Below are positions 22,968 to 59,416 of a stretch of DNA of 64,000 nucleotides, piece by piece. The stretch is from Longimicrobiales bacterium (GTDB lineage: Bacteria > Gemmatimonadota > Gemmatimonadetes > Longimicrobiales > Gaopeijiaceae). The stretch's first letter is position 1; each line of letters starts with the position of its first letter. The position numbers were made by a program, and so were the translations under genes. The stretch covers positions 2,914,022-2,978,021 of the forward strand of contig OZ245028.1 in the NCBI GenBank assembly GCA_965223925.1. Reading direction: 5' to 3'. The notes beneath the pieces are model-generated. The model saw only the letters and a list, made by a program, of their open reading frames with translations. It ran no database searches and had not been told where the DNA came from.

Positions 22968-23405
22968 ATGTCACAGGCTGCCCGGGGTCTCATCGTAGCG
23001 GTCCTGGCCATTGCCGGTTTCGGTTGCCAAGAGGATTCCCAAAGCACGCGGAATCCCGATGTTCCGGCCGATTCCGCGACCGTATTCCTGTCCGATTCCG
23101 CGTCCGTGGATATCGTCCGGATCTCCAATCTGCACGCCGTGGACCTTCCTCAAGTCGCGAAGAGGCTGATCTATTCCACAGCCGCGGATTTCGAGTTCGA
23201 CCACGTCGTGGGAGCGGTTTTCCTTCCGGATTCATCGCTGGTAGTCGCTGACCGGGGGTCATCCCAACTCATCCTCCTCGATCGAGAGGGAAATGTTCGA
23301 GCGCGCACAGGTCGAGAGGGGGAGGGGCCGGGAGATGCCGCGTTAGTGGTTGGGCAGCCGGGGAACACTGGTTGCCTGTGGGCCCGCCACTCATCCCTAC
23401 TCTGA
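22968..23405 (+). pseudogene. N-terminal fragment (lipoprotein signal plus first blade, up to the GEGPG motif) of a beta-propeller paralogue, in frame with tdk.
   Basis: MSQAARGLIVAVLAIAGFGCQ (lipobox) ... LILLDREGNVRARTGREGEGPGD, then unrelated sequence and a stop. It is cut where the convergent ATPase gene ends. Confidence 0.6.
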
Positions 23406-24518
23406 TCCCTCGTCCCCCTCGGTTAACCATCGGCCAAACCCCGGGTCCGCGAGTTCCCACTTTCCTCTCGCGGTGTCGACAATCCCGAGGCGTTCCAGCC
23501 TCCGAAGCGCCGCCTGTACACGCGCGGCGCTTGGCGCCTCGTCGCCGAGCGCCTCGCGAAAGACTCGGCTGAACGGCCTGGGAGCACCCATCGCCAAGGC
23601 GCGTGCTGTCTCGCGCTGAATCGGCGTGAGGGCCAACCATGTCTCCGGGTAGCCGAGGTCTGCGGCAATACGCTCCCGGACGTGATCGAGGGCCGAGCTG
23701 ATCGTATGCTCCGCGTCGTACAACATTGTCTGGACCAGCAAGCGAAAGAAGTAGGGATTGCGATGAAGACGGTCGAAAGCATCAAGCATTCCGTCGGGAT
23801 CCAGGTTTCGTTTCGACGTTTTTCGAAACACGGCCACAACGTGGTCTACGAACAGCTTGCCGAGCGCGGGGAGATCAATCGGTGTGGCAAAGTGGAAGAA
23901 CGGAGCCTCCCGGTTCGAGAACATCGCCGCCAGGCCGGCACGGCTGGATCCGGTAAATACCGCCTTTAATCCCTCCCGTCGCTTGTCCAGACCGGTCCTC
24001 AGCGCGGCCACGAGCGGTGAGTTGCTACGGCTACGCGCCAGTTCCTGGACCTCGTCCAATAGCAGGATGGTCGGCCGGGTCTTCCTGGAGACCCGTCCCA
24101 ACAGGTCGTCAAGGTGGAGGAGTAGATTGGTCGGCGGTTCGCCCTTGAGTCGGGTGAGATCGATCTCTGCTTCGGCCCCCGTTCCGGTACCGGGAACTGC
24201 TGCCGAGAGCTTCAGCTTGGGAGCCACTCTCCAGGCAGAAGTTCGAATCCTGTCCGCCAGTGTGCCCCGCTCCCGCGATTTCTCAAGAGCGTGTAGCAGC
24301 ACCGCCAGCGGGCTGAGCGGCGCTTGCCAAAACGATGCGTAGATCACACGGTGTCCCTGTGCTTCGGCGTGCGGCGCCAGGTCCTGGACGAGGAACTCGG
24401 TCTTGCCTGCTCGCCGTGGAGCGAAGAGGCTCAGCGCCTGAACCGGGCCATGAGCAAGTGTATTGAGTACCTGGTCGGCGAGTTCGTCGCGGCGGAAATG
24501 CCAAGGGTCTCTGGTCAT
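23397..24518 (-). CDS. P-loop ATPase (archaeal-ATPase / ORC-like AAA type) with a C-terminal winged-helix domain.
   Basis: Walker A FAPRRAGKTEF and Walker B ILLLDEVQE. C-terminal RVQAALRRLERLGIVDTARGKWELADP is wHTH-like. Confidence 0.65.
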   Translation of the reverse strand: MTRDPWHFRRDELADQVLNTLAHGPVQALSLFAPRRAGKTEFLVQDLAPHAEAQGHRVIYASFWQAPLSPLAVLLHALEKSRERGTLADRIRTSAWRVAPKLKLSAAVPGTGTGAEAEIDLTRLKGEPPTNLLLHLDDLLGRVSRKTRPTILLLDEVQELARSRSNSPLVAALRTGLDKRREGLKAVFTGSSRAGLAAMFSNREAPFFHFATPIDLPALGKLFVDHVVAVFRKTSKRNLDPDGMLDAFDRLHRNPYFFRLLVQTMLYDAEHTISSALDHVRERIAADLGYPETWLALTPIQRETARALAMGAPRPFSRVFREALGDEAPSAARVQAALRRLERLGIVDTARGKWELADPGFGRWLTEGDEGSE

Positions 24519-24546
24519 CGGTGTCGTTATCCGGATTTAGCCATGA

Positions 24547-24573
24547 ATGGATAATTATCCATTGATGGATAAT
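24547..24573. promoter_or_regulatory. Perfect 16-bp palindrome ATGGATAATTATCCAT plus an extra half-site ATGGATAAT, directly upstream of the ATPase gene.
   Basis: Palindrome at 24547-24562 and half-site at 24565-24573, in an AT-rich 80-bp gap 30-55 bp upstream of the ATG at 24518. Confidence 0.4.
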
Positions 24574-28260: not shown

Positions 28261-29120
28261 CTAGCCGCCGGACCGTTCCAGCGGCCAGAGTTGCACGTAT
28301 TCCACCCCGAGTTCGTCAGACGCCCACCCCAGGATGTAGTCCTCGCCGATCTCGCGGATCCGCAGACTTTTCGGCGTCTCCAAGAGTCCCAACATCCGCC
28401 CTTGCGCGTCGAACACCGTCCACAGTGGCGCAGGCCTTTCCTCGAATGGAAAGTCGTATTCCCGCACCCAGAGGTAACCCGCCTTGTCGCTCCTGACCGA
28501 ACTGAAGGCGGGAAAGTGTTCGGCGACGGGCACGCCCTGGTATCGCTCACGCACCTGTTCGGGACTCAACCCGGGGGGAGAGTTCTCCGCCCTGTGAGCC
28601 CAGACTTCTGCTTCGGTCGGCGCGCGCGGCTCATGTCCGCGCCGGACGATCCGGACCAGGGTGCCGTCCCTGGTGAAGGCCTTCAACTCGTAGCGCTTCA
28701 TGGGGCTGATGATGACAAGGTCGCCCCAGAGTGCGACGAACGTTCCGCTGCCGTAGGTCGCGACCAACCGCGCTCCCTTCGGCTCCCTGTCGGCATGCGT
28801 CCCGAGCGAGGTCAGCACCTCGCCTTCGCCATCTCTGATTTGCACGACGATCCTGCTGCCATCTGCATTGGACGAGGCGGTGAGGATCCCGCCGTCCCTT
28901 GTGGTGGACTCCGGACTCCAGCGGAACCCCGGAGTACCTCCGTCGTCCGCCAGGGTGAAGGTGCGGCCGAAGTTGCCCCTGTCGTCAAAGACGGACAGAC
29001 CGGCCCGCGGTGCCCGCCATGTCAGTATCGAGTCGCCCGGCCACGGCTCGACCGTCAGGAGGCGTTCGGATACCACCGACAGCCACCAGCCGAAAGATGG
29101 TTCGGGCCCCGGGCGTGTCA
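28261..29120 (-). pseudogene. C-terminal ~two-thirds of a beta-propeller paralogue with no signal peptide or start.
   Basis: It ends ...EDYILGWASDELGVEYVQLWPLERSGG*, matching the family C-terminus D[ED][LM][DG]V..V.V..L..GG. The ORF-track entry 28261..29745 reads through from the SDR pseudogene. Confidence 0.5.
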
Positions 29121-33274: not shown

Positions 33275-33424
33275 GGCAACCTCCTCAAGCGCTCCCGGGC
33301 GCGGCCCGGATCCTGTCATCGACCGTTGACCCACGCAGTCCAAGCCTCTTTCCAGCCAGCCATCTTCCCCATCGTACGTTAAGCAACCCTGGCCATATGG
33401 ACGACTGTCCAAAGCCGTGGGGAC

Positions 33425-34018
33425 AATCCGGCTCGGGCGCAGTCGGCCCAGCCGAGACCGGCCGCCGAGGTGCGCCTGTCGGCTGAACCGGTCCTCTCCA
33501 TCGGGATGCTCGATGGGCCGGACGAGTACCTCTTCGCCGGGATCAACGCTGGCACCCTGCTCGCCGACGCAAGCGTGGTCGTGTCCGATCAGCAGCACTT
33601 CCGGGTCCAGCGGTTCAGCGCCGAGGGGGAGCACCTGTGGAGCCGCGGCCAACCGGGCGAGGGGCCGGGCGAGTTCAGGAATGTCTGGATCGCGGAGGGG
33701 TGCGCGAGCGAGGAATCGATCGTCGTGTACGACATCTGGACCACGCGGGTCTACGTGTTCGACAAGGAAGGCAATCTCGTGGACGAGTACCGCTTCCTGT
33801 ACAACGGACTGCCGCTGCGCGATTTCGCGTGTGCGCCCAGCGGGCGCCTGGGCTTCATGGGGTCCAGTGTCGGGATAGGCGAGGAGGGCGTCGAGCCCGG
33901 GGAACTCTTCCGCGCACTCCTGTCGCTGGGCTCCGCGGAACTTGGAGACACGGCCACGACGACGCTGCGTGAGAGGATCCTGGACCCAACTCCGCCCCGC
34001 CCTGTCAACTGTGAGTGA
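33425..34018 (+). pseudogene. Internal fragment of a paralogue of 41903..43087, lacking both the signal peptide and the C-terminal half.
   Basis: Nucleotide similarity to 41975 onward starts at about 33425. [24 protein letters not shown]...GEGPGEFRNV...[12 protein letters not shown], then unrelated sequence and a stop. Confidence 0.7.
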
Positions 34019-34087: not shown

Positions 34088-35335
34088 ATGCGAAAGCCAT
34101 TGGCAGCGTTCGGCGCAGTCGTCGTCTCATTCAGCCGCTCGCCAACCCGAACCCATCTCATCCTCCTGCTCCTGGCACCAGCCGCCGCCTGCGCACCCGA
34201 CCCCTCGCCCCCCGCCCACGCCCCACCCCTGATCCAAGACAGCGCCGGCATCCGGATCGTCACCTACGAGCGCACCCCAACCGCCGCCGCCCCCTTCCAG
34301 CTCGCCGCAGAGCCACGGTACCGCCACGGCGCCAGCCCGGGTGACTATGCCTTGCAGGAGGTTGGCGTCGGCCGCCTCTTACCGGACGGCAGCGCGGTCG
34401 TCTACGACCCATGGAACAGCGAACTGGTCGTTCTCGGCCAGGATGGCACGACGTACGAGGTGCTTGCCACGGAGGGAGAGGGACCCGGGGAAGTGGGCTC
34501 TGTCAGTGCCATATTCGCACTGGGGCAGGACAGTGTCCTGGTGGCTGACCTCAACCTCGGCCGGATGACTCTTTTCGTCGGCGCTTCGGTCGCGCGCACC
34601 GCGGGCCTCAGGCTCTCCGGCCGCCTCGGTGTGGAGGGAATCGGTTCATCCGGCGAGTTGCTGCTGGCCACTTACTGGGGTCCGTCCGTATTCGAAGAGG
34701 AATGGCTCCCCGGGCACATGATCCGGTTCGACATGGAGACCGGCGCCCTCGACACAATCGCGTCATACGATCTCAATCCGCGTATCCCGCCGGGGCTTCA
34801 GTGGGACCCGATCCGAGCGGCTGGCGAGGTCATGGTGGCCGCCGGGCAGTTCGTCTACACCAGGTCCGACAGGCCGGAGGTTACCTGGCGTCTGCCCGAT
34901 GGCACGGTAACGCAGATCATCCGGTGGCAGGCCGAGCCGGCTTTGCTGACCGAGGAGTGGCTGGAGCCCATTGAAGCCGAGCACCTTATTTCGGTTCGCA
35001 TGCACAGCCCCGGCGTTCCCGATGCCCGGATCGCGGAGATCACCCGAAGGAACATGGCCGCCTATCACGCCGGCATCGGCCGGCCGATGCCGCTCTTCGG
35101 TTCGCCGTTCGCCGACGCCGAAGGAAGGATATGGCTGCCGTCCTACAAGCCGGGCGGTGAGCGCCATAGTGTGGCCCCCTACAGCGTGATCGCGCCCGAC
35201 GGGGAGTGGCTGGGCACGGTCGAGGCTCCGCCCGGGTTCCGTATGCTCGATGTAGCCGGAGGGCTCGTCCTCGGCGTGGCGCGAGACGAAATGGATGTGG
35301 AGAGCGTCGTGGTGTACGAGTTGGTGGGTGGGTAG
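34088..35335 (+). CDS. GEGPGE-motif beta-propeller lipoprotein paralogue (subtype A).
   Basis: Lipobox LAPAAAC. IQDSAGIRIVTYE...TEGEGPGEVGSV... C-terminal DEMDVESVVVYELVGG*. Confidence 0.75.
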   Translation: MRKPLAAFGAVVVSFSRSPTRTHLILLLLAPAAACAPDPSPPAHAPPLIQDSAGIRIVTYERTPTAAAPFQLAAEPRYRHGASPGDYALQEVGVGRLLPDGSAVVYDPWNSELVVLGQDGTTYEVLATEGEGPGEVGSVSAIFALGQDSVLVADLNLGRMTLFVGASVARTAGLRLSGRLGVEGIGSSGELLLATYWGPSVFEEEWLPGHMIRFDMETGALDTIASYDLNPRIPPGLQWDPIRAAGEVMVAAGQFVYTRSDRPEVTWRLPDGTVTQIIRWQAEPALLTEEWLEPIEAEHLISVRMHSPGVPDARIAEITRRNMAAYHAGIGRPMPLFGSPFADAEGRIWLPSYKPGGERHSVAPYSVIAPDGEWLGTVEAPPGFRMLDVAGGLVLGVARDEMDVESVVVYELVGG

Positions 35336-35497: not shown

Positions 35498-36700
35498 ATG
35501 CCAGGCCGAAGCCACTTCATTCTTGTACTGATGGCAGGGGTCGGGGCGTGCGGGGGCGACACCTCGAAGACCGGTGATGTCCCGGTCGAGATCCAGGACA
35601 GCGCGGGCGTGCGGATCGTCGCGTATGAGGGGACGCCAACCACCGCCGCCCCCTTCCGCTTCCCCGCAGAGCCACGCTACCGCCACGGCGCCACCCCCGG
35701 CGACTACACCTTCCGCGGAATCAACGTCGGCCGCCTCTTCCCGGACGGCAGCGCCGTCGTCTCGGACGAATGGAACAGCGAACTGGTCGTCTTGAGCACG
35801 GATGGCACGACGCACGAGGTGCTTGCCAGGCAGGGAGAGGGACCGGGCGAAGTCATGTACGTCTACGCCATGTTCGCGCTGGGGCAGGACAGCGTCCTGA
35901 TGGCTGACCCTCGCCTGGGCCGCGTCACTCTCTTCGCCGGCGGTTCGGTCGCGCGCATCGCCAACCTGCATCGGTCAACCGGCCTCGGTGGGGCCGGAAT
36001 CGGTTCATCCGGCGAGTTGCTGCTGGCCACCCGAGTACCTTCCGAGCGCCTGTCCGGTTTCGAACGGGAATGGCTCCCCGGGCACATGGCCCGGTTCGAC
36101 ATGGAGACCGGCGCCCTCGACACGGTCGCGTCGTACGACTACATGCCGCGTATCCCGCCGGGGCTGGAGTGGAACCCGATCGCGGCGGTTGGCGAGGTCA
36201 TGGTCGCCACCGGGCAGTTCGCCTACACCAGGTCCGACAGGCCCGAGGTCACCTGGAGTCTGCCGGACGGCACCGTAACACAGATCGTGCGCTGGCAGGC
36301 CGAGCCCGCCCAACTGACCGAGGAACTGCTGGAGCCCGTCGAGGCCGACGAACGAATGAGGAACCGCGTTGCCTACCCCGGCCTTCCCGATTCCCGGATC
36401 GAGGAGATCACCCAGGAGGACATGGCCGCCTATTACGCCAGCATCGGCCGGCCGATGCCGCTCTTCGGTTCCCCGTTCGCCGACGCCGAAGGAAGCGTAT
36501 GGCTGCCCTCCTACCAGCCGGGCGGCTCACAAGATGGGTTGCCCTACACCGTCATTTCCTCGGACGGGGAGTGGCTGGGCAAGGTTGAGGCTCCGCCCAG
36601 GTTCCGTATTCTCGATGTGACCGGAGGGCTCGTCCTCGGGGTGCTCAGGGACGAAATGGACGTGGAGAACGTCGTCGTGTACGGGTTGATGGGGGGGTAG
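35498..36700 (+). CDS. GEGPGE-motif beta-propeller lipoprotein paralogue (subtype A).
   Basis: ATG at 35498 after ggagggagag. Lipobox MAGVGAC. RQGEGPGEVMYV. Ends DEMDVENVVVYGLMGG*. Confidence 0.75.
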   Translation: MPGRSHFILVLMAGVGACGGDTSKTGDVPVEIQDSAGVRIVAYEGTPTTAAPFRFPAEPRYRHGATPGDYTFRGINVGRLFPDGSAVVSDEWNSELVVLSTDGTTHEVLARQGEGPGEVMYVYAMFALGQDSVLMADPRLGRVTLFAGGSVARIANLHRSTGLGGAGIGSSGELLLATRVPSERLSGFEREWLPGHMARFDMETGALDTVASYDYMPRIPPGLEWNPIAAVGEVMVATGQFAYTRSDRPEVTWSLPDGTVTQIVRWQAEPAQLTEELLEPVEADERMRNRVAYPGLPDSRIEEITQEDMAAYYASIGRPMPLFGSPFADAEGSVWLPSYQPGGSQDGLPYTVISSDGEWLGKVEAPPRFRILDVTGGLVLGVLRDEMDVENVVVYGLMGG

Positions 36701-36828: not shown

Positions 36829-38064
36829 ATGCCAACAACAGCCCCCTGGATCGAACACACGATCCGTCACCTCACTCTGGCCGCCACCCTCCCGGTCCTT
36901 CTCACGGCCTGCGGCTCCGGCTCCGACGGGGTCGGCGAATGGTCCGGCACGATGGACACCCTTCCTTCCGGCGAGATCGTCGTCCGAAACACCGACGATC
37001 CGCTCTGGACATCGGAGAATGCATGGCGGGTGGTCGAGGATCTGAGGATCGGGGAAGCAATGAGCGAGGGTCCCGATCTGTTCGGGGCCATCTTGTCCTT
37101 CGACGTTGATGCGTGGGGCCGGATCTTCGTCCTCGACAATCAGGCGCAGGAGGTCCGCATCTTCGACTCGGGAGGCGCCTTCGTCCGAACGGTCGGGAGG
37201 AGGGGCGAGGGACCGGGGGAGTTCACCCAGGCCGGTTCGGTCAACCTCTCCCGGAACGGAGAGATCTGGGTGATGGGAATGGGCCAGGGGCGCGTCTCGA
37301 TCTTCGACACAACCGGCACCTATCTGAGAGGGGAGCGGACCAACGCCGGCGGCATGATCTTAAGACCGTACCGTGGAGGATTCGATCCGATGGGTCGTTA
37401 CAACGTCGTGATCCGGTCCGCGGGCATGAGAGGGATGGCCCGCTTCGACCAGTCCTTCACCCCGATCGATACAATCTCCCTTCCCGAGAATCCGGAGGAA
37501 GGCGAGTCCTTCACCATGGTCGGCGATGACGGCAGGTCGAGGATGAGCGCGGCCGTACCCTTCCAGGGATTCATGGCCTGGCGCTTCTCGCCCACAGGCA
37601 CCGTGTGGACGCTCCTCACCGGTCGCTACGAACTCTCGGAGATGACGGCCGGCGGCGAGGTGCTGCGAACCGTTACGAAGGATCATGAACCGATCGCGGT
37701 GACGGACGAGGAACGGGAGGAGGCCATCGAGAACCTCGATTGGTTCACCAGCCAGGGGGGGCAGATCGATCGGTCGAAGTTTCCCAATACCAAGCCTGCC
37801 ACGGCTTCCTTCCTTATCGACGACGAGCGGAACCTGTGGGTCGAACGACAGGTCGCGTTCGCTGACGAGGACGATGAGGGCCGCCTCTTCGACCTCTTCG
37901 ATGCCGAGGGTCGCTATCTCGGTATGCTCCGCCTCCCCTTCTCGCTACGACGGTCGATTCCCGAGCCGATCGTGCGGAACGGCGTCCTTTACGGCGTCAC
38001 GAGCGATGAGATCGGGGTGCTGTACGTTGTGCGAGCTCGGATCGTCAAGCCCTCTGGTCGTTGA
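36829..38064 (+). CDS. GEGPGEF-motif beta-propeller lipoprotein paralogue (subtype B).
   Basis: Lipobox LLTAC. GRRGEGPGEFTQAGSV. Ends GVTSDEIGVLYVVRARIV... Confidence 0.75.
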   Translation: MPTTAPWIEHTIRHLTLAATLPVLLTACGSGSDGVGEWSGTMDTLPSGEIVVRNTDDPLWTSENAWRVVEDLRIGEAMSEGPDLFGAILSFDVDAWGRIFVLDNQAQEVRIFDSGGAFVRTVGRRGEGPGEFTQAGSVNLSRNGEIWVMGMGQGRVSIFDTTGTYLRGERTNAGGMILRPYRGGFDPMGRYNVVIRSAGMRGMARFDQSFTPIDTISLPENPEEGESFTMVGDDGRSRMSAAVPFQGFMAWRFSPTGTVWTLLTGRYELSEMTAGGEVLRTVTKDHEPIAVTDEEREEAIENLDWFTSQGGQIDRSKFPNTKPATASFLIDDERNLWVERQVAFADEDDEGRLFDLFDAEGRYLGMLRLPFSLRRSIPEPIVRNGVLYGVTSDEIGVLYVVRARIVKPSGR

Positions 38065-41919: not shown

Positions 41920-43087
41920 AGCTCTGGATTCACGCCGCACCGTGTCAGCCCTGGCCCTGGCTGCCACACACCATCCGGCTCGCGCGCAGTCGACCCAGCC
42001 GAGACCGGCCGCCGAGGTGCGCCTTTCGGCCGAACCGGTTCTCTCCATCGGGAGGCTCGACGGGCCGGACGAGTACCTCTTCGCCGCGATCAACGCCGGT
42101 GCCCGGCTGGCAGACGGCAGCGTGGTCGTGTCCGATCGGCAGCAGTACCGGATCCAGCGATTCAGCGCAGATGGGGAGCACCTGTGGAGCCGCGGCCGCG
42201 AGGGCGAGGGCCCGGACGAGTTCAGATATGTCCGGATCGCGGAGGGGTGCGCGAGCGAGGAATCGATCGTCGTGTACGACACCTGGACCGACCGGGTCTA
42301 CGTGTACGACGGGGAAGGGAATCTCGTGAACGAGTACCGCTTCCTGTACAACGAGTTGCCGCTGCGCGATTTCGGGTGTGCCCCCGGCGGACGCGTGGCC
42401 TTCATGGGATCCAGTGTCAGGAGCGGCGAGGAGGGCGTCGAGCCCGGCGATCTCTTCCGGCAACTCGTGTCGCTCGGCTCCGCGGAATTGGGCGACACGG
42501 CCACGACGACGCTGCGTGAGAGGATCCCGCACTCGGAACAAAGGCTTCTCGGTCCAGGCAACGCGATGCCTGGAAGCACCTGGCCACACGACGTGGTGTT
42601 TGCCGCGACCAACGAAGGAGTGTGGCTCGGAACCAGTGAGGACTACGAGGTCGAGTTGATCGACTGGACGGGAGCGACGATTCGGCGAATCCGCTGGGAG
42701 GGGCCGGATCTGGCCGTGACCCGGCAGGACGTCGACCGATACCGGGACGCCCTCGAGGAACGCTACCGCGACGACGACGATCCCAACTGGCGTGCGCGCT
42801 TCGAGAGCACCTGGGATTGGGAGAGCGAGATCGTGCCCGACGTGTTCCCCTCGTACCAAAGGCTTCTGGTGGGGGACGACGGCGTGCTGTGGGTGCAGGA
42901 CTACATCCGTCCCGGGGAGCGGAGCGAGTGGTTCGCCTTCGACCCGGACGGCCGATGGGTCCGCTCCCTGGTGCTGCCCCGTCGCACCCGCCTGCTGGAC
43001 ATCGGCCCCGACTGGGCGCTCGTGCGAACGGTTGACGACCTGGATGTTCAGCGGGTCCAGGTGCGGGGATTGGTGGAGGGGGGGTAG
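41903..43087 (+). CDS. GEGPDEF-motif beta-propeller paralogue (subtype C).
   Basis: The TTG start at 41903 overlaps the previous gene by 17 nt (start uncertain). [13 protein letters not shown]. Ends [18 protein letters not shown]. Confidence 0.7.
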
Positions 43088-43949: not shown

Positions 43950-43959
43950 ATGGGCCTGC

Positions 43960-44781: not shown

Positions 44782-45190
44782 TCACCGAATCTCGATCGGA
44801 AGTCGCCAGACGGTGATGACCGGAACCTCGGCGAAGAAGCGCTTGTTCTCGATTGCCGCCGTCCGGGAGTCCGCGACAGCCTCGATAAACGCGTCGGCAT
44901 CGGGTGACGGCGTCCCACTGCTTCTGACCGTAATCGCCTCCACCCGGCGTCGTTTCAGTCTCCGGGTTCTCGTCGGCTTCCCGGTCCTCGGCCGGGGCCA
45001 CCGGCAGATCCTGGTAGGCAACCAGCTTCTCCAGGAACTCAAGCGGCGTCCCACTTGACTGAAGAGAACTGCGCGGAAACCGAATCGTTTGTATGGAGTT
45101 CAGGCGGTCGATCCATTTCTGTGCCAGATCCTGGGGTGTCAACTCCAGTTCGGCGTCCGGATTGTCGGTCGGCGGCTCTGCAACGTCCGT
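44782..45190 (-). pseudogene. Frameshifted, 5'-truncated hypothetical gene.
   Basis: Protein-like sequence is split over two frames: ...LEFLEKLVAYQDLPVAP...GGGDYGQKQWDAV, then PDADAFIEAVADSRTAAIENKRFFAEVPVITVWRLPIEIR*. Confidence 0.3.
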
Positions 45191-45191
45191 G

Positions 45192-45483
45192 ATCTGGGTC
45201 CAGCGCTGCGGCGAAGAACCGGTCAGCGCCGGCCCCATCGACGTGCTCACCCCGGACGGGCGCTACCTGGGCACCTTCGCGGCGGATGCAACGGCGATGC
45301 CGAGCGCTTTCGGTCCGCACGCGCTTCGAGAGCGCCTGGGATTGGGAAAGCGAGATCGTGCCCGACGTGTTCCCCCCCGCACCCGCCTGCTGGACATCGG
45401 ACCCGACTGGGCGCTCGTGAGAACAGTTGACGACCTGGACGTTCAGCGGGTCCAGGTGCGGGGTTTGGTGGAGGGGGGGGTAG
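45192..45483 (+). pseudogene. Three-segment mosaic remnant of the tandem paralogue pair 40693..43087.
   Basis: 45192-45316 is ~95 % identical to 41710-41834. 45318-45373 matches 42795-42850. 45375-45483 matches 42978-43086, including the stop. Confidence 0.8.
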
Positions 45484-45536
45484 GGTTACCCTGAACAGGG
45501 ACCACCCCACCAGCGACACGAAGGAGGCAAAGCGAC

Positions 45537-46590: not shown

Positions 46591-46959
46591 TCATGCGGCA
46601 TGGGCAAGTGAGGGCGTCGCGGATCCGGGCGTGCGGGCCATGAGGCGGGTGAGGTCTTGTCGGGTGAACTTCCATTGAAAGGGGGAGGCGATCTGCTGGT
46701 AATGGTCCTGAAAGCCGAGGATACGGTCGGCGACTTGGTTCTGGGAAGTGAAGTGAGCGGGCGTGAGGGCTTTGCGCTGCAGGATCGAGAAGTAGATCTC
46801 GATCTGGTTCATCCAGCTCGCGTGCGTGGGCAGGTGCACCAGGGTGAGATTGTCGAACTGTGCCTGGAGACGGTCGACGGCGCGCTGGCCGCGGTGAATG
46901 GTGCCGCCGTCGACGATCCAGAAGACGCGTCTGGCCGAATGATAGGGTTCTCGGGCCAT
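46591..46959 (-). mobile_element. IS630-family transposase, C-terminal (DDE_3) fragment only.
   Basis: VFWIVDGGTIHRG...LVHLPTHASWMNQIEIYFSILQRKAL...F.S......I..F...Y. The N-terminal ~200 aa are missing. Confidence 0.7.
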
Positions 46960-47161: not shown

Positions 47162-48331
47162 ATGGCGCGACTGTCCGTATCTCGTCATCGAGTTCTGACC
47201 ACGACGCGTTGTCAGAATCAGGCTGTTGTCGGGCTGGCCGCCTTGGCGGTCGGCCTGGCCACAGTGCCCCCCCAGTTCCTGTCCGCCCAGATGGGGCCAT
47301 CGCTCATTCTGGAGGACAGTGTCGTCCTGCGCGAGACGGACGATCACTACCTTGGTCAGCCGGTCAGCCTCATCCCCGTGGGAGACGGTTCCTTTCTGAT
47401 AGCCGACGGTTTTTCGAATAGCGTTCTGCACTTCGATTCCCGCGGTCGGTATCAGAGGACATTCGGGCAAAAGGGTGAGGGCCCCGGAGAGTTCGGGTTC
47501 GTCAGTGCCGCCGGCTTTGTGGCGGGCGACGTGGTCGGCATCGGCGACGATCGGGTGTTCGAACTAGAGTTGTTCGACCTTCGTAGCGCCGCTCACATCG
47601 GGGCGGTACAGATGAGTGCCCTGGTGGATGAGTATGTCGTGCGCGGCGATACCATCTGGTTCGGTGGGGTGAACAAGGAGAATTGGACCTCAGTCGGATC
47701 TGCTGAGTTGGACGACCTCGTCGCTGTCGCTTCCTCCGGCGGGGGGGATGGCACCATCCTCTCGCCGAATCGAATAGGCGTGCCCAGGATCTACATGGAG
47801 AACGAAGTGGTCATGGGCATGCTGGCCGGGGTCTCGCTCGACGTCCACGAGGGTGTCTCGGTCGTTGGCTTTGCGGCGTCACCCGCATTGGTGATTGCCA
47901 GCTCCTCCGGTGCCGTCCTGGATTCGCTTGCAGTCCCTGCTTCCAGACGCCGAGGGCTTCCTGAAGAAGAGCTCCTCGCCCTGGAACGTGGATCAGGGTA
48001 CACGGACATTTACGGAAGGATGTCCATCCTGCTGAAAGTGTCACATGACTCACTCGGATACATCCACACCGTCCACCAAGAGAGCGACTACGATCCCGAG
48101 ACCCGCCAAATGCGGGGGACGTTCTTCGTGTCGAGTGTGAGAGCGGACGGCACACAGCCCTGCCCCGACACCTTCGTCCCCACCGCCGATGCGGGGCTCG
48201 CGGAGCTCACGTTGCAGGGAAGTCGGCTCCATGTGCTGGACCAGCGACTTGCGGGCGGCGGAGTACGGACCGTCGTACGCACCTTCAGCATCGATCCCGA
48301 GAACTGCACCGGTGAGATCGTTGAAGGGTAG
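47162..48331 (+). CDS. GEGPGEF-motif beta-propeller paralogue (subtype D), secreted.
   Basis: Signal peptide ...LATVPPQFLSAQ. GQKGEGPGEFGFV. Confidence 0.7.
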   Translation: MARLSVSRHRVLTTTRCQNQAVVGLAALAVGLATVPPQFLSAQMGPSLILEDSVVLRETDDHYLGQPVSLIPVGDGSFLIADGFSNSVLHFDSRGRYQRTFGQKGEGPGEFGFVSAAGFVAGDVVGIGDDRVFELELFDLRSAAHIGAVQMSALVDEYVVRGDTIWFGGVNKENWTSVGSAELDDLVAVASSGGGDGTILSPNRIGVPRIYMENEVVMGMLAGVSLDVHEGVSVVGFAASPALVIASSSGAVLDSLAVPASRRRGLPEEELLALERGSGYTDIYGRMSILLKVSHDSLGYIHTVHQESDYDPETRQMRGTFFVSSVRADGTQPCPDTFVPTADAGLAELTLQGSRLHVLDQRLAGGGVRTVVRTFSIDPENCTGEIVEG

Positions 48332-48334: not shown

Positions 48335-48761
48335 AGACGCGCCAGCGGTGTGGCTCAGTAACCGACCTACCGTTACTCCAGTAGAGCGGTCATCACTCTC
48401 GGACAGGCGCCACCGGGTCAGGTGCTCATTGACGGGTTGTCCGAGATCCAGGTTGCGATCTGCCGCGAGCCGGAGCACTCCCCATGGTCGTCACCGGCTT
48501 TGAGAGGGACGCCACATTCAGTGGAGTGGAGGCCCCCATCAATCTCCCCGATGAAGGATCGACGAAGCCGTACCCTGTGGTCAAAGCGGGAACGCCATCG
48601 TGAAGGTACGCGACGACAAGGCCCGGAACCTCATGTTCAGCCAACAGCCCGGGGACGACTGAATCCAGCATGGTCCGGAAGCGGTCGGGCCCTTCCTGCG
48701 CTACCGCCAAGGTGGGGCCGAAAAGCAGCCAAAAAGGAGCGGCCCAGAGGGCACTGCACAC
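48335..48761 (-). pseudogene. Beta-lactamase-family serine hydrolase: N-terminal ~140 aa, frameshifted and 3'-truncated.
   Basis: Signal peptide, then GLVVAYLHDG......GYGF.D........TPLNVASLSKPVT (SxxK). It continues in another frame as LRLAADRNLDLGQPVNEHL...VTVGRLLSHTAG. Confidence 0.55.
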
Positions 48762-48789
48762 CTGTCTGCGTCGGATCAGCGCACCCCCC

Positions 48790-49700
48790 CTCCGGCAGAC
48801 GCCTCACCACCACGTAGGGCACGTCCAGGTCATCCGTCTCCACGAAGGCGGCGAGGCCGTCCGGGCCAAAGGCCGAAGGCATCGCGGTGGAGCCGGGCGC
48901 GAAGGTGCCCACGTAGCGTCCGTCCGACGAAATGAGGTCGATCGGGTTGCCCTCCGTCCCTTCGTCGCCTCGGTGGCGGACCCAGATGGTGCCTTCCCAG
49001 CCCTTCCAGGCGGCGCTCGATCTCGGCGGCCTTCATGCGGTCTGTCACGGGGCTGGGCTGGAACGGACGGGTCAGGATCCGGGTCACACGGCCGCCAGGC
49101 ACGGCGATCTTGATTGCGTACGCAGAGGAGTCGGTGTACACCACCGCCTTGCTGGGGAGCACTGCCGCCGCGAGCCGGGGCCTGAATGCCTCCGGATCGC
49201 CGGGCGCCCGCCATCCCGCCACGACCGAGTCGATGCCGACCCGGTCGCCGCTCAGATCGTAGCTCAGGACATACCGGAACGAGGGTGCCGGCGCTTCGTC
49301 GTCGGGACTGGGCGCGGTCCTTCTCAGGTAGCCGACTTCGGTTGTGGCGAGAACCCGATCCATTCCCGGGAAGGCCTGAATGCCACCGATCATCGGCGTG
49401 TGCGTCTGCGGGCCTCCCAAGGGGATCGTGCGTTCGAATTCGCCGTCCGCAGCGAAGAGGGCGAATCCCATTCGCCCCACGTCGTAGACGGTCACCCGTC
49501 CGTCCCGCATGACGGCGAACTCCAGTGCGGCCGCAGACCGCCTGCTCGCGGTCGCCTGCGCGATGCTCCAAACCCGGTCCTCCTTACCGGCCCGCCGACC
49601 CGGCAGAGCATCATGCGGCCTGGTCTCCTCTCCCGTCGCCTCGCCAGGCCATGTTTTGCCGCCACACCTGCGGCCTTCCCGCTCTTGGACGAATCAGGTC
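48790..49700 (-). pseudogene. Subtype-B beta-propeller paralogue with several frameshifts, a degenerate GEGPGEF motif and a lost stop.
   Basis: AAALEFAVMRDGRVTVYDVGRMGFALFAADGEFERTI ... [36 protein letters not shown] ..., then in another frame [42 protein letters not shown]. Confidence 0.6.
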
Positions 49701-54270: not shown

Positions 54271-55260
54271 ATGGCCAGTGCTGAGCAGCTCAAGGCGTTG
54301 CTGAGGTCGCATCTGGAAGGCGACAACGACCGGTTTATCTCGGTCGCCATGCAGCTCGCCGCTCACGAAGCGAGGCTGGGCCACGGTAAACTGGCCACCG
54401 ATCTGCGCGACATCATTGATCAGGCCAAGAGCCGCCGTGAAGCGGGATCTCCGGTGCCGATCAGCCGGCCGCGCGGAGAGTTGGCCAACCTCCTGGAGGC
54501 TTCCTACCCCAAGTCACGGCTGGGGGACATGATCCTTGGAGAGACCCTCGCGGATCGGATCAAACGTGTCATTCGTGAGCAGCGCCATGCCGGGCGAATC
54601 CTGGATCACGGTCTTTTTCCAAGGCGGAAGCTCATGCTTGTGGGCCCTCCGGGCACCGGAAAGACGCTTACCGCGTCGGTCCTGGCGGGCGAACTCGGTC
54701 TTCCTCTGCTTCAGGTCCGCCTCGACGGCCTCATCACGAGATTCATGGGCGAGACCGCGGCCAAGCTGAGGCAGATCTTCGACGCCACCGACCAGACCCG
54801 GGGCGTGTATTTCTTCGACGAGTTCGACGCCATCGGTTCGAAACGCGCGATTGCCAACGATGTGGGGGAGATCCGGCGGGTGCTGAACAGCTTCCTCCAG
54901 ATGATTGAGCAGGACCGCTCCCACAGCATGGTGATGGCGGCGACCAATCATCCCGGCATACTCGACCGCGCACTCTTCCGCCGCTTTGACGACATCCTTC
55001 ACTTCGAGCTGCCGGACGAGTCGCAGATCGCCAAGTTGCTGAAGATGCGACTTGCCGCGGCGACGCAGCGGTCGATCGCATGGAGTGACCTCGCGAGCCG
55101 AGCCGTCGGGCTAAGCTACGCGGAGGTAGCACGGGCCGCGGACGATGTGATCAAGGATGCGCTGGTTTCTCGCCGTTCCCGGGTCCGGGAGCAGGAGATC
55201 CGCGCGATGCTTGAGGAGCTGAAGGCGACCCGTGAGCGGTTCGGGAAGCAACGGGCGTAG
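54271..55260 (+). CDS. ietA: AAA+ ATPase, IetA-like partner of the downstream S8 protease.
   Basis: Walker A LVGPPGTGKT and Walker B VYFFDEFDAIG. AATNHPGILDRALFRRFD (sensor / Arg finger region). Confidence 0.8.
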   Translation: MASAEQLKALLRSHLEGDNDRFISVAMQLAAHEARLGHGKLATDLRDIIDQAKSRREAGSPVPISRPRGELANLLEASYPKSRLGDMILGETLADRIKRVIREQRHAGRILDHGLFPRRKLMLVGPPGTGKTLTASVLAGELGLPLLQVRLDGLITRFMGETAAKLRQIFDATDQTRGVYFFDEFDAIGSKRAIANDVGEIRRVLNSFLQMIEQDRSHSMVMAATNHPGILDRALFRRFDDILHFELPDESQIAKLLKMRLAAATQRSIAWSDLASRAVGLSYAEVARAADDVIKDALVSRRSRVREQEIRAMLEELKATRERFGKQRA

Positions 55261-55278
55261 TCAGAGCGCGATCTCGAG

Positions 55279-57789
55279 ATGGCGAACGGAAGCGAAGGGA
55301 AGAATCAACACTTCATTCTCAAAGACGTAACGGAGACTGAGGCGTACAGCTATCCGGGTGGTGGTGGCGGCGATGGTTCTAACATTCCCGAACGCGATCG
55401 TACCGCACACGCCGCGGCCCTGCGAGGGCAACTGGACGCGGTTCGCGAAAACGCGGAGACCGCGGCAAATGCCCAGCGGGACGCCGGCATCGAAGAGGGT
55501 TTGGGACTTCAGGTCGAGTTCGAGAGTTTCCCCGATGTGGAGTTGGTGTTTGAGAGCCTGGCACGAGAGAAATCGGGAATCGAATTGCTGAATGTACGCC
55601 ATGAGGACAAGATCACTCTGGCAACTGTCTTCGTGCCCGACGGCAAGCTCGATCACTTCGAGAACCTACTCGTAGCCTATCTCGAACGCCGTGAGGATAG
55701 CCTCGGTCGCCCTCGAGACAGCAGGCTGCTACTCGACGCTATCCGACAGATCCGGGCGGCCAGTATTCGGGCACTCTGGACCGATGACCGTGGAGCCTTC
55801 CCCACCACCGAAGATGAGCCGGTGTGGTGGGAAGTGTGGCTACCGGTCAGGACGGATCGGCAAGCGACGACCGCCGCGTTTCGCGAGAGATCCGATCTCC
55901 AGGGAATGCGTTTGGCCAAAGGAGAGCTGAGATTCCCGGAGCGTACCGTCCTCTTGGCACAGGCTTCTGTGGAACAGATGCGAGCATCCATGGTCACGCT
56001 GAACAACATCGCCGAGTTGCGGCGCCCGAAGGAAACAGCGGAGTTCTTCGATACTCTGCTTCCTTCGGAGCAACTGGAATGGCTTGAAGACCTGCTGGCC
56101 AGGACTCGATACCCGTCCAGCGCCGAAGATGTCCCTTATGTCTGTCTCCTTGATACTGGAGTCAACCGCGGTCATCGGTTGCTCGCCCCCGCGCTGGCTG
56201 TAGATGACCTGCATACGGTCGAGCCTGGTTGGGGAACCGACGACGCCGACGGCCACGGGACGGAAATGGCAGGACTCGCTCTTGGTGGGGACTTGGCAGA
56301 ATTGTTGGACGCAAGCGGTCCGGTGGACCTCAGACACCGGCTGGAGTCCGTGAAACTGCTGCCCCGCGATGGGACAACCGGGACCGATCCCGAGCACCAC
56401 GGATACCTGACCGTCGAAGGAGTCGCGCGGCCCGAGATTCCTGCTCCGGACCGGCCAAGGGTTTTCGGCATGACCATCACGGCTCGCGACAACCGGGACC
56501 GGGGACGTCCGTCAGCATGGTCATCAGCCATCGATGCCTTGGCGGCCGACTCGGACGGACATGGAGGCCATCCGCGGATGCTCGTGGTATCCGCAGGCAA
56601 CGTCAACGACCCCACGGCGTGGGGCAACTATCCCGAGAGTAACGACTCGGACGGCGTACACGACCCAGCCCAGGCGTGGAACGTGCTTACGGTCGGCGCA
56701 TGCACCGACCTGGTATCGATAACCGAGCCAGACACCCAAGGACTTGAGCCAATCGCCCCGAAGGGTGGCCTGAGCCCCTTTAGCACCACATCTCTGCCGT
56801 GGCAGGGACATTGGCCAATCAAGCCGGACGTGGTATTGGAAGGCGGGAACGTCGCAAGGGACTCCTTGGGCGCCGTAACGATCCCGAGTCTCAGTCTCTT
56901 GACGACGAGCTATCGTCCAGCGATGCGATCCTTCACCACAAGCCACGCCACCAGCGCGGCGACCGCTCTTGCGTCCCGACTCGCAGCGCAGGTGATGGAA
57001 GCATATCCGGGCCTCTGGCCAGAGACGGTTCGCGGGTTGATCGTCCATTCTGCGGAGTGGACCGATGCAATGAAAGCCGCGTACTTGCCCGAAGGTCAGA
57101 GTCCATCCAAACGCGATTGCCAGAAGCTGCTACGTCGTTGCGGCTTCGGCGTACCGGATCTGGAACGCGCGCGCTGGAGCGTCGCCAATTCTCTGACCAT
57201 GGTTGTTCAAGAGACCCTGGTCCCATTCAAGCGCCGCAAGTCAGGAAATGTGGTGAGTCGCGAGATGCATATCCACAATCTGCCTTGGCCGCAGGAGGCC
57301 CTGGAAGCCCTGGGAGAGACGCCGGTCGAGATGCGCGTTACTCTCTCTTACTTCATTGAGCCGAACCCGTCTCGGCGGGGCGTCACGTCCCGATATCGAT
57401 ATGAGTCACATGGTCTCCGCTTCGACGTCAAGCGACCGCTCGAATCGATCGACGGCTTCCGCGGTCGAATCAGCGCAGCGGCGCGTGACGACAAATACGA
57501 AAGCGGTGGGGGCGGTGGCGATCCGTCATGGCTGATCGGTACCCAAGGCCGCCATCGCGGATCGATTCATGGTGACATTTGGCGTGGGAGCGCGGCCGAT
57601 CTCGCCAGCCGGGGGTACATCGCCGTCTATCCTACCTCGGGATGGTGGAAGACACGGCAAACACTAAAGCACTACGATAGAGACGTGCGGTATGCCCTGG
57701 TCGTGAGTATCCGGGCGCCGGAGGTTGACGTCGACCTATACACCGAGGTGGCGAACCGGATTGATGTCGGGGTGCCGGTAGAGATCTGA
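55279..57789 (+). CDS. ietS: S8 (subtilisin-like) serine peptidase with a large N-terminal extension, IetS-like.
   Basis: Catalytic Asp CLLDTGVNRGH, His DGHGTEMAGLAL, Ser SHATSAATALASRLAA. It starts 18 nt after the ATPase stop. Confidence 0.8.
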   Translation: MANGSEGKNQHFILKDVTETEAYSYPGGGGGDGSNIPERDRTAHAAALRGQLDAVRENAETAANAQRDAGIEEGLGLQVEFESFPDVELVFESLAREKSGIELLNVRHEDKITLATVFVPDGKLDHFENLLVAYLERREDSLGRPRDSRLLLDAIRQIRAASIRALWTDDRGAFPTTEDEPVWWEVWLPVRTDRQATTAAFRERSDLQGMRLAKGELRFPERTVLLAQASVEQMRASMVTLNNIAELRRPKETAEFFDTLLPSEQLEWLEDLLARTRYPSSAEDVPYVCLLDTGVNRGHRLLAPALAVDDLHTVEPGWGTDDADGHGTEMAGLALGGDLAELLDASGPVDLRHRLESVKLLPRDGTTGTDPEHHGYLTVEGVARPEIPAPDRPRVFGMTITARDNRDRGRPSAWSSAIDALAADSDGHGGHPRMLVVSAGNVNDPTAWGNYPESNDSDGVHDPAQAWNVLTVGACTDLVSITEPDTQGLEPIAPKGGLSPFSTTSLPWQGHWPIKPDVVLEGGNVARDSLGAVTIPSLSLLTTSYRPAMRSFTTSHATSAATALASRLAAQVMEAYPGLWPETVRGLIVHSAEWTDAMKAAYLPEGQSPSKRDCQKLLRRCGFGVPDLERARWSVANSLTMVVQETLVPFKRRKSGNVVSREMHIHNLPWPQEALEALGETPVEMRVTLSYFIEPNPSRRGVTSRYRYESHGLRFDVKRPLESIDGFRGRISAAARDDKYESGGGGGDPSWLIGTQGRHRGSIHGDIWRGSAADLASRGYIAVYPTSGWWKTRQTLKHYDRDVRYALVVSIRAPEVDVDLYTEVANRIDVGVPVEI

Positions 57790-57897
57790 ACGGGGCGACC
57801 TGGTCGGTCGCGGAGTCGGTTGCCTGACCCCCAGCAGGCTGACCGGGTTCGCGCCGGTATGATAAGATGCATCGCAATTGAGATACAGGAGGCCCGA

Positions 57898-58179
57898 ATG
57901 AAGACACATAGTTCGATGCTGCACGTCCAGATGGACACCGAGATGAAGCGGAAGGCGACAGCGGCGCTCGCGGCGATGGGGCTGACGGCCTCGGAGGTCG
58001 TGCGGCTGCTGTTCCACCGCATCACCATCGATCAGGCGTTCCCGCTCGAACTCAAGGTACCGAACGCGCAAACCCGGAGGGCCATGGCCGAGGTCGACGA
58101 AATGGTGAAGACGCGCGCGGCCCGATTCGCGAGCGCGGACGAGGTGTTTGCGGAAATTGAAGAAGCCAGCAGCCAGTAG
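57898..58179 (+). CDS. DinJ/RelB-family antitoxin with no cognate toxin gene (orphan).
   Basis: CAGGAGG RBS. MLHVQMDTEMKRKATAALAAMGLTASEVVRLLFHRITIDQAFPLELKVPNAQTRRAM fits the ribbon-helix-helix DinJ pattern. Confidence 0.75.
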   Translation: MKTHSSMLHVQMDTEMKRKATAALAAMGLTASEVVRLLFHRITIDQAFPLELKVPNAQTRRAMAEVDEMVKTRAARFASADEVFAEIEEASSQ

Positions 58180-59416
58180 ACGGGCCAACCGTTCAAAGGA
58201 CCGCCGGCGAGGGCATTCCCTGTCACGCCGAAGCCACCTCGCTTTTGTGCTGACGGTAGGGGTCGGGGCCTGCGGAGGCGACCTCTCCACCCCCACCCAC
58301 GCCCCACCCCAAATCCAGGACAGCACGGGCATCCGACTCGTCACCTACGACCACACCCCAACCGCCGCCGCCCCCTTCCAGCTCGCCCCCGCACCCCTCT
58401 ACCGCCACGGCACCAACCCGGGTGACTATTCCTTTCAGGAGGTCAGCGTCGGTCGCCTCATACCGGACGGCCGAGCGGTCGTCTACGACCCGTGGAACGC
58501 CGAACTGGTTGCATTCGGCCCCGACGGAACGACACACGAAGTCCTCGCCACGGAAGGAGAGGGACCAGGGGAAGTCAGCTACGTCGCCGCCATACTCCCG
58601 CTTGAGCAGGACAGCGTCCTGATCGCCGACCCCGGCCTCGCCCGCGCGACCCTCTTCGTCGGCGGGTCGGTCGCGCGCATCACGGCCCTCCCGCGCGGTG
58701 CCCGCCTCCGCGTTGAGGGAATCGGTTCCTCCGGCGAGTTGTTGCTGGCCACTGCCGGGGGCGCGTGGGGCTTCGAAGGGGATTGGCTCCCCGGGCACAT
58801 GGCCCGGTTCGACATGGAGACCGGCGCCCTCGACACGGTCGCATCGTACGATTTCTGGCCGCGCACCCCACCGCGGCTGGAGCGGAACCCGATCGGTGCA
58901 GTCGGCGAGGTCATGGTCGCCACTGGGCACTTCGTTTACACCAGGTCCGACAAGGCGGAAGTCACCTGGCGTCTGCCCGACGGCACCGTCACGCAGATCG
59001 TCCGATGGCAGGCCGAGCCGGCTCTTCTGACCGAGGAATGGCTGGCACCCATCGAGGCCGGGCACCGGATGCAGGCTCGCATGCACAGGCCCGACCTTTC
59101 CGATGCCCGGATCGCGGAAAACACCCGGAGTGACATGGCGGCCTATCACGCCACTATCGGCTGGCCGCTGCCACTCTTCGGTTCCCCGTTCGCCGACGCC
59201 GAAGGAAGGGTATGGCTACCCTCCTACAAGCCGGGCAGCGCGCGCCACAGCATGGCGCCCTATACGGTGATCGCGCCCGACGGGCAGTGGCTGGGCGCGG
59301 TGGAGGCTCCGCCCGGGTTTCATATTCTCGATGTCGCCGCCGGGCTCGTCCTCGGTGTGGAGCGGGATGAGATGGATGTGGAGAGTGTGGTGGTGTATGA
59401 GTTGGTGGGGGGGTAG
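58148..59416 (+). CDS. GEGPGE-motif beta-propeller lipoprotein paralogue (subtype A). Start uncertain.
   Basis: Lipobox VGVGAC. TEGEGPGEVSYV. Ends DEMDVESVVVYELVGG*. The position homologous to the ATG of 35498 is CTG here. The longest ORF uses TTG 58148 inside the DinJ 3' end. Confidence 0.7.
   Translation: MRKLKKPAASRRANRSKDRRRGHSLSRRSHLAFVLTVGVGACGGDLSTPTHAPPQIQDSTGIRLVTYDHTPTAAAPFQLAPAPLYRHGTNPGDYSFQEVSVGRLIPDGRAVVYDPWNAELVAFGPDGTTHEVLATEGEGPGEVSYVAAILPLEQDSVLIADPGLARATLFVGGSVARITALPRGARLRVEGIGSSGELLLATAGGAWGFEGDWLPGHMARFDMETGALDTVASYDFWPRTPPRLERNPIGAVGEVMVATGHFVYTRSDKAEVTWRLPDGTVTQIVRWQAEPALLTEEWLAPIEAGHRMQARMHRPDLSDARIAENTRSDMAAYHATIGWPLPLFGSPFADAEGRVWLPSYKPGSARHSMAPYTVIAPDGQWLGAVEAPPGFHILDVAAGLVLGVERDEMDVESVVVYELVGG

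Follow-up and report, generated by a model that had tools for sequence, protein, structure and literature searches.

A 64,000-nt stretch of contig OZ245028.1, assigned to a Longimicrobiales bacterium and referred to here as the window (GC content about 65%), encodes a family of β-propeller proteins predicted to be exported. The family occupies a 37-kb stretch (22968-59416), in which we find seven intact paralogs and six fragment loci that amount to seven gene remnants. When a hidden Markov model (HMM) built from the seven copies was run against all six reading frames of the window, family sequence was confined to 21957-59413. Among named relatives, the nearest belong to the order Palauibacterales (Gemmatimonadota) and bear the label "Longimicrobiales bacterium" or "Candidatus Palauibacter sp."; this order is abundant in marine samples and still uncultured. 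Related loci and contigs with which the window was compared carry labels such as L001, L005 and L084, and two of the loci, L001 and L089, come from one genome.

All seven intact genes (A to G) lie on the forward strand. Three of them are of one type, hereafter A-type: A (34088..35335; 415 aa, with the lipobox-like LLLLAPAAAC), B (35498..36700; 400 aa, lipobox GVGAC, 70% identical to A) and G (58148..59416; 422 aa as called, lipobox GVGAC, start uncertain). Their mutual identity in an all-vs-all blastp is 68-76%, with G at 73-76% to A. The remaining four are C (36829..38064; 411 aa, lipobox LLTAC), D (40693..41919; 408 aa, signal peptide without Cys), E (41903..43087; 394 aa), which overlaps the end of D by 17 nt, and F (47162..48331; 389 aa), the most divergent copy. 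C, D, E and F share 22-33% identity with any other copy, at E values of 1e-3 to 1e-15. Over the entire comparison E values range from 0 to 1e-3, and each of the seven copies has a partner at 4e-6 or lower (E with B, for instance, at 4e-15), which bears out the proposal of an earlier, first-pass annotation that all copies form one homologous family. That annotation distinguished about four subtypes; we count at least five among the intact genes, plus three more known only as fragments. Proteins identical to A and to F are encoded on four other contigs and on four contigs, respectively.

Two sequence features had been put forward as common to the family, and both fall short of universal. The motif G.GEGPGE is found as GEGPGE(F/V) in six of the seven intact copies, but E has GEGPDE instead and one of the remnants (H, described below) lacks the motif. 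The C-terminal tail D(E/D)(L/M)DV, part of a predicted strand DE(L/M)DV..VVV, occurs in A, B, D, E, G and H; C has a degenerate form (DEIGV) and F has none. As for the start of G, this gene has CTG at the position of the ATG of B, leaving as its sole usable start a TTG in the overlap with the 3' end of a relB gene; relB thus ends within the called 5' end of G (58148-58260). One database entry, P0013 (470 aa), has been called as a fusion of RelB and propeller. An exact-product database look-up of G returned nothing, probably because gene callers chose another start.

A signal peptide was called in all seven intact paralogs. The lipobox pattern [LVI][ASTVI][GAS]C is canonical in B (VGAC), C (LTAC) and G (VGAC) and non-canonical in A (AAAC) and in fragment f1 (GFGC), so that the name "lipoprotein" initially given to the family suits these copies but not D, E and F, which have hydrophobic signal peptides with no Cys. 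Over all loci scanned, a crude regular expression detects a lipobox in 101 of 224 full copies; such copies, about half, would be lipid-anchored.

The expectation that these proteins adopt a propeller fold was upheld by both profile and structure comparisons. Pfam model PF17170 (DUF5128, "6-bladed beta-propeller"; gathering threshold 22.9 bits) matches C, F and D above the cut-off (46.1, 29.3 and 23.7 bits) and E below it (15.7 bits), with no match to A, B or G. An AlphaFold2 model of A, made from 63 sequences (predicted local distance difference test score 85.4, predicted template-modelling score 0.83), has about 24 strands, which form six four-stranded blades, plus a two-helix insert (residues 289-328) that separates blades 4 and 5. 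Foldseek comparison of this model with the PDB gave as top match 4raa (BF0058; E = 2e-11, template-modelling (TM) score 0.55 on the target), followed by the NHL domains of TRIM2, Brat, TRIM71 and Thin (TM 0.6-0.7 on the target); weaker matches include SMP30/Drp35 lactonases and Vgb lyase (E ~1e-7), as well as BtuG lipoproteins. Similarly, a phmmer search of the PDB with C returned the NHL domains of Thin, TRIM2, TRIM3 and TRIM71 in two to three matched stretches (E 1e-21 to 1e-11), with values of 1e-21 to 1e-17 for Thin and TRIM2 and 6e-4 for 4raa. A profile termed A1, which also includes rows for C to F, matches NHL domains at E = 8e-34; an hhalign comparison of A1 with C was discarded as circular, because A1 contains C. 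The Pfam NHL model (PF01436) stayed below its cut-off for the copies (14.9 vs 20 for D), and the only NCBIfam matches, weak ScyF-like NHL ones far under cut-offs, were set aside.

How much of the propeller is NHL-like can be gauged from a search of 1.84 billion representative sequences with a profile of the seven paralogs, which gave 110,471 matches. The top ones are giant multi-NHL proteins, hit repeatedly at profile positions 69-160 only, indicating that the blades of the GEGPGEF region are canonical NHL repeats and that the remaining blades are degenerate. We did not take the number of matches as a family size, since matches through positions 69-160 measure the NHL superfamily. Thirteen alignment columns are invariant among the seven paralogs, eight of them Gly or Pro, and the only acidic invariant residues (D103, E127 and E131) fall within or beside the NHL sequence motifs. 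No candidate catalytic set common to the seven paralogs, and no shared His/Asn/Glu metal ligands, were found in the alignment. Among A-type proteins, entropy is 0.78 in strands, 1.12 in loops and 1.66 in the helical insert.

Annotation of the two main kinds of paralog differs in public databases. Orthologs of C are named "6-bladed beta-propeller" by NCBI, and relatives at ~55% identity occur in Bacteroidota and Rhodothermaceae metagenome-assembled genomes (MAGs). A-type relatives (at least 544, at 60-96% identity) are "hypothetical" or without a name, have no Pfam domain and, from the genome scan, appear to be confined to Gemmatimonadota. The cluster thus combines PF17170 members with a sister subfamily (A, B and G) that the Pfam model misses.

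Besides the intact genes, the window holds remnants of the family in various states. The four fragments recorded in the first-pass annotation (22968-23405, 33425-34018, 45192-45483 and 48790-49700) are all real homologs. Of the eight genes it counted as intact, seven are indeed open and homologous, but the eighth (28261-29120), which it listed as arguably intact, is only a C-terminal fragment. This fragment, H (28264..29120, minus strand), retains the C-terminal ~55% of a distinct subtype, corresponding to HMM positions 224-399 only, and has neither a signal peptide nor GEGPGE. It lies in a single 494-codon open reading frame (ORF; 28261-29745, minus strand) together with the first ~110 residues of a truncated SDR oxidoreductase, whose N-terminus is matched at residues 21-113 of the ORF (NCBIfam PRK08303, E = 6e-38). 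The SDR-propeller ORF is a deletion fusion, and the same fusion is found in L086. An intact gene in L023 is 62% identical to H. Among the strains compared, L086 shares H with the window, and in L084 and L087 its place is taken by a YafQ-RelB module.

Fragment f1 (22968..23405, plus strand) lies directly after tdk and represents the N-terminal third of a further distinct subtype, comprising the signal, the lipobox and the first blade up to GEGPG. It is 70% identical to a full-length gene in L037, and many related species have a full family gene at or near this position downstream of tdk. The tdk ORF itself has no stop before the ATG of f1 and reads through into the lipoprotein signal and truncated propeller (21972-23405, plus strand); the tdk of relatives ends 15-25 codons past a conserved RAQREL, and on other contigs the tdk-f1 read-through is called as a single thymidine kinase product of 348-351 aa.

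Fragment f2 (33383..34015, plus strand) is the 5' half of an E-like gene, which we term E2 (phmmer to E, E = 1e-100). It shows 97% nt identity to the 5' 564 nt of an intact 390-aa gene in L001, and ~1.9 kb is gone from the window. On the opposite strand, a 972-codon ORF (31103-34021, minus strand) is over-extended across f2; other contigs call a 723-aa GSDH + DUF1028 (+ PG_binding) protein there, an unusual domain fusion.

Fragment f3 (45063..45491, plus strand) joins two 3' ends, one from a D-like and the other from an E-like gene. Nucleotides 45192-45321 are 95% identical to 41710-41839, and nucleotides 45372-45479 are 94% identical to 42977-43084; f3 is the relic of a second D-E pair. It is common to the window, L001 and L085, lies within a block over which the window and L001 are 99.7% identical, and is older than the other decay in the window.

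Fragment f4 (48640..49693, minus strand) is a frameshifted, 5'-truncated relic of a 410-aa D-like gene, with two reading frames that match D. The source gene is intact in L089 and L090, and of its product the window retains residues 124-292 (100% identity) and 338-408 (96%). Nearby, at 48341/48342, 966 bp found in three related contigs (L088-L090) are missing from the window, which truncates the beta-lactamase-fold gene beside F. Fragment f5 (~52505-52630, plus strand) comprises roughly the first 42 codons, encoding the signal and lipobox, of a 417-aa C-like family lipoprotein. Absent from the first-pass annotation and from our HMM scan, it was revealed only through sister-strain comparison: in a tblastn search with the L089 protein, residues 9-42 matched at 52529-52630 with 97% identity, and the start at ~52505 is extrapolated. 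Homology to L089 stops at 52627, where a segment with a MarR-type regulator and the IetAS genes begins.

To trace the origin of such remnants, we can turn to six haplotypes whose A copies are identical or 96% identical: the window, L084, L086, L087, L001 and L085. Genes A, B and C are intact in all six. The E2 slot, between the GSDH gene and A, holds the 5' half in the window, L084, L086 and L087, and an intact gene in L001 and L085. Upstream of A on the minus strand, a 421-aa gene is intact in L085, is broken into two frameshifted pieces in L001 and is absent from the window, L084, L086 and L087. D is intact in the window, L084, L001 and L085, and in L086 over 338 codons to the end of the locus, with no call for L087 (a call is missing where a locus ends before the position or the state was not determined). 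E is intact in the window and L085, is reduced to a 44-codon relic in L084 and has a 527-bp internal deletion in L001, with no call for L086 and L087. Intact genes in the E2-to-E core number seven in L085, five in the window, five in L001 and four in L084. Beyond this core, the 410-aa D-like and 417-aa C-like genes are intact in L089, and the window keeps f4 and f5 as their relics. The losses between near-identical strains are reciprocal and driven by deletions, and most fragments are deletion derivatives of genes intact in sister strains. The decay proposed earlier is thus recent and strain-specific, the six near-identical haplotypes keeping four to seven intact core genes.

Small segments have changed place as well. 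A segment with a DUF433-type toxin-antitoxin (TA) remnant lies between the M23 gene and D in the window (39562-40728) and upstream of the GSDH gene in L001 (4496-4915); its differing places indicate that small TA-bearing segments moved within the locus.

Gene-wide ratios of nonsynonymous to synonymous substitution (dN/dS), calculated by the Nei-Gojobori method (NG86), gave no sign of the "diversifying" selection suggested for this family. Between the window and L001, dN/dS is 0.34 for A, 0.27 for B, 0.32 for C and 0.55 for D; the value is 0.33 for E versus E2, and 0.40-0.49 for pairs among A, B and G. These gene-wide values for strain comparisons (0.27-0.55) are near that of a neighbouring control, the GSDH gene (0.28). 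The family is under purifying to mildly relaxed selection, gene-wide.

Divergence between the window and L001 is uneven. Synonymous divergence (dS) varies about 15-fold, from 0.007 for M23 through 0.023 for C and 0.053 for A to 0.110 for D, and D shares 95.7% nt identity with its L001 ortholog. Over 31090-45894, identity per 300 nt ranges from 92% to 100%, and the block 43160-45894 is 99.7% identical. This mosaic pattern suggests homologous recombination between strains across the hotspot. Recombination among paralogs, also part of the earlier proposal, is less clear: the closest pair among A, B and G switches along the gene, and a permutation test gave p = 0.007 with all informative sites, which is suggestive, but p = 0.27 with third codon positions, where the signal is gone. 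Hence, gene conversion is not established.

A scan of species-representative genomes returned 79 loci, all from the Palauibacterales-like group, and the family HMM identified 217 full-length copies and 107 fragments in them. At least four full copies within about 21 kb are seen in 18 of the 79 loci, two loci have ten, and one MAG (jk18x22bins.63) has at least 17 full copies over four loci. Clusters with fragments are a trait of the whole lineage. The closest match outside the window is in L005 for A (77%) and C (93%), in L017 for B (81%), in L083 for D (57%), in L068 for E (76%) and in L014 for G (80%), compared with 76% identity or less for the best pair inside the window. Because A, B, C, D, E and G are closest to loci of other species, the duplications predate several species splits, and the array was inherited rather than produced by a local burst. 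These data argue against the "massive local expansion" first envisaged, given that the nearest relatives are in other species and similar clusters are common across the order. Local dynamism itself is real: near-identical strains differ in gene content, and so do species that share the conserved site. In L007, L012, L018, L019, L021 and L022, the genes run in the order HEAT-repeat gene, Hsp70-like gene, (M14), tdk, family genes, GSDH, and each of these six loci has its own number and orientation of family genes.

Among the genes interleaved with the family are tdk, an AAA_16 ATPase, an M14 carboxypeptidase, DUF6338, the GSDH-DUF1028-PG_binding protein, an M23 peptidase, a glyoxalase, HTH regulators, a GldB-like/DUF2268 protein and a Big_2/CarboxypepD_reg protein. 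A 553-aa ankyrin-repeat protein (26505-28166, minus strand; Ank_2, E = 2e-45) is also encoded among the family genes and, like a 906-aa fn3-domain protein at 3936-6653 (plus strand), is a repeat protein of the 'eukaryotic-like' kind reported to be enriched in sponge symbionts. The TA relics, insertion sequences (IS) and defence genes reported to intersperse the array are present, in the form of RelB and a relB relic, DDE transposase genes and an IetAS pair. IetA (AAA ATPase) and IetS (S8 subtilase) occupy 54271..57789 on the plus strand (PADLOC E = 3e-73 and 8e-32; Pfam AAA and Peptidase_S8). Just upstream of F, 62 nt (47018-47079) are 97% identical to the IetA-IetS junction and the first IetS codons, and look like a remnant of a second IetAS copy; they lie beside a DDE_3 transposase relic (46591..46959, minus strand) that matches PF13358 at E = 8.5e-11 over profile positions 73-144 only. 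The RelB antitoxin gene (57820..58179, plus strand; PF04221, E = 1e-12) overlaps the start of G, and no toxin gene was identified beside it. An 83-nt repeat after C (38099-38181; 93% identity) is a relB relic. An IS4-type DDE_Tnp_1 transposase gene (59725..61476, minus strand; PF01609, E = 7e-10) follows G directly and marks the edge of the cluster.

Candidate functional partners among the recurrent neighbours (tdk, M14, the Hsp70-like gene and AAA_14/DUF4143) were rejected, these being either shared synteny or mobile genes. Upstream of the cluster, two creatininase-domain genes, one of them fused to SDR, are found together with genes for a flavin amine oxidase and a TonB-dependent receptor (7222-9171, minus; 13224-15098, plus; 9211-11829, minus; 11945-13213, plus). 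This group may be a creatinine/amine utilization locus.

The reading we favour, and consider fairly probable, is that the locus is a conserved hotspot of old, exported, six-bladed NHL-type propeller paralogs that serve as binding scaffolds in the envelope, and that the array is now eroding. The hotspot would be a chromosomal site of Palauibacterales-like Gemmatimonadota, extending from thymidine kinase to beyond a GSDH-DUF1028 gene, and would store old and diverse paralogs of both the DUF5128/PF17170 type and the unannotated A-type. Their products each bear a Sec-type signal, and about half of them have a lipobox Cys and would be lipid-anchored; the propeller strands are conserved, and the loops and the two-helix insert (blades 4-5) are the most variable parts. 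Once in the periplasm or at the cell surface, they may act as non-enzymatic ligand-binding scaffolds, the various paralogs supplying differing binding specificities. Strain by strain, the array is being eroded by deletions of about 0.1-2 kb and by insertion of, or replacement with, mobile, TA and defence DNA; this strain-specific erosion gives rise to the fragments. A role as ligand-binding scaffolds in the cell envelope, rather than as enzymes, seems most likely for these proteins, because the paralogs share no catalytic set and their best matches are non-catalytic NHL domains.

Several points weigh against this reading. The scaffold role leans on a missing catalytic constellation and on the NHL analogy, and Foldseek also returns enzymes of the same fold, namely SMP30/Drp35 lactonases and Vgb lyase (E ~1e-7). 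Neither DUF5128 nor PF17170 appeared among the literature matches listed, and the literature matches to bf0058 are unrelated papers. The calls of signal peptides and lipoboxes come from visual inspection and a regular expression, and the proteins may sit at the inner membrane, the outer membrane or the surface. Moreover, G may be non-functional.

Could the paralogs be enzymes after all, that is, six-bladed propeller lactonases, lyases or hydrolases with differing small-molecule or peptide substrates, working perhaps alongside the M14, M23, DUF2268 and S8 peptidases? Foldseek matches to Drp35, SMP30-like proteins, regucalcin and Vgb lyase (E 1e-7 to 1e-8) would be consistent with this, as would a profile match to the PAL domain of peptidylglycine amidating monooxygenase (E = 3e-5) and the several peptidase genes nearby. 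However, the best structure and sequence matches are to non-enzymatic NHL domains and to 4raa. For SMP30/gluconolactonase/LRE-like and Drp35-type proteins, the paralogs show only fold-level likeness (E ~1e-7), with no Pfam or NCBIfam match, and the SGL, Str_synth and arylesterase families likewise have no Pfam match among them. Invariant residues are limited to Gly/Pro and motif-associated acidic ones, as opposed to shared metal ligands, and the peptidases are not consistently tied to the family across loci beyond shared synteny. Given this, we regard an enzymatic role as unlikely. We consider it quite unlikely, too, that these proteins are 'eukaryotic-like' NHL effectors with which sponge- or coral-associated Gemmatimonadota bind host proteins, copy flux then reflecting host-specific selection. 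The eukaryotic-like domains reported as enriched in sponge microbiomes include NHL repeats (PMC9531527, PMC5524777), and the window does encode the ankyrin-repeat and fn3 proteins mentioned above. Many of the related loci also appear to be sponge-derived, by an unchecked reading of isolate-name prefixes (RHO1, RHO3, SB06xx, APA and bin94), which we take to denote sponge-derived MAG sets. On the other hand, lipid anchoring and ordinary Sec signals suggest a place in the envelope of the bacterium itself, a dedicated secretion system is not found nearby, and C has its ~55%-identity relatives in MAGs of Bacteroidota and Rhodothermaceae. The description of Palauibacterales makes no mention of such proteins.

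The remaining alternatives concern the fragments and the site rather than the activity of the proteins. In antigenic or phase variation of the pilS/pilE or vls kind, the fragments would be silent cassettes, donating sequence to expressed copies by recombination. Fragments 83-95% identical to intact D and E do lie within a few kb of them, and the shift of the closest A/B/G pair along the gene (p = 0.007) is what such exchange might leave behind. Yet this signal is lost at third codon positions (p = 0.27), and no flanking recombination repeats, invertase or recombinase were found in the window. Every traceable fragment is a simple deletion derivative of an intact sister-strain gene, and f3, lying in a block 99.7% identical between strains, was evidently not used as a template. 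We rejected silent-cassette variation, which seems extremely improbable, on the grounds that the fragments trace to genes intact in sister strains. A more ambitious idea, in our judgment highly doubtful, treats the site that follows tdk as a 'contingency island' found throughout the order, whose variable propeller lipoproteins would be surface determinants of interactions with phages or an animal host, kept polymorphic by frequency-dependent selection. Such an island would account for the IetAS, TA and IS elements at the site and for the reciprocal presence and absence of genes in sister strains.

Part of the "hypothetical" gene content of Palauibacterales is a large, old family of exported NHL/DUF5128 propellers. 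Annotators gain a gene name, and ecologists a marker of strain-level variation, as the content of the hotspot differs even between strains with identical copies. If the proteins do bind host or environmental ligands, the family would bear on the life of these bacteria in sponges and sediments. The cluster reveals no new mechanism. The fold and family are already known, and the C-type is already annotated; what is new is the A-type subfamily missed by Pfam, together with the conserved hotspot that follows tdk and the documented decay, reciprocal from one near-identical strain to another. The paper describing Palauibacterales does not mention this gene family.

The closest comparator is PF17170/4raa, the latter being BF0058 of Bacteroides fragilis, a "putative exported protein". 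Like the proteins described here, its members are exported six-bladed propellers of 350-420 aa. Unlike them, A, B and G have no Pfam match and E falls below the cut-off; the Gemmatimonadota proteins share the DE(L/M)DV..VVV C-terminal strand; and a variable two-helix insert is present in the A model and, by alignment, in the other paralogs too. The NHL domains of eukaryotic TRIM2/3/71, Brat and Thin have the same six-bladed fold, with blades 1-2 of our proteins (GEGPGEF...D) corresponding to canonical NHL repeats. Here, however, only about two blades hold the NHL motif, and the propellers are stand-alone and exported, whereas the eukaryotic ones are C-terminal domains of cytoplasmic RNA- or protein-binding TRIM proteins. 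BamH, described in a preprint on the Bacteroidetes β-barrel assembly machinery, combines an Ig-like domain with a six-bladed propeller and was dismissed as a close comparator, its architecture being different. The BtuG lipoproteins of Bacteroides, which function in B12 capture, are propellers with a lipid anchor, as about half of the present family would be; they serve as ligand-capture modules and, as here, occur as paralogs within one genome. Nonetheless, the structural match to BtuG is weak (TM 0.35-0.45, E ~1e-7), there is no evidence of corrinoid binding here, and the window's one TonB-dependent receptor (9211-11829) lies >10 kb upstream and adjoins no family gene. Finally, the plasmid paralog families of Borrelia, which encode surface lipoproteins, resemble this locus in having many paralogs along with fragments and fusions amid transposase relics; in contrast to those families, the array described here is chromosomal, its paralogs are old and under purifying selection, and its fragments stem from recent deletions.

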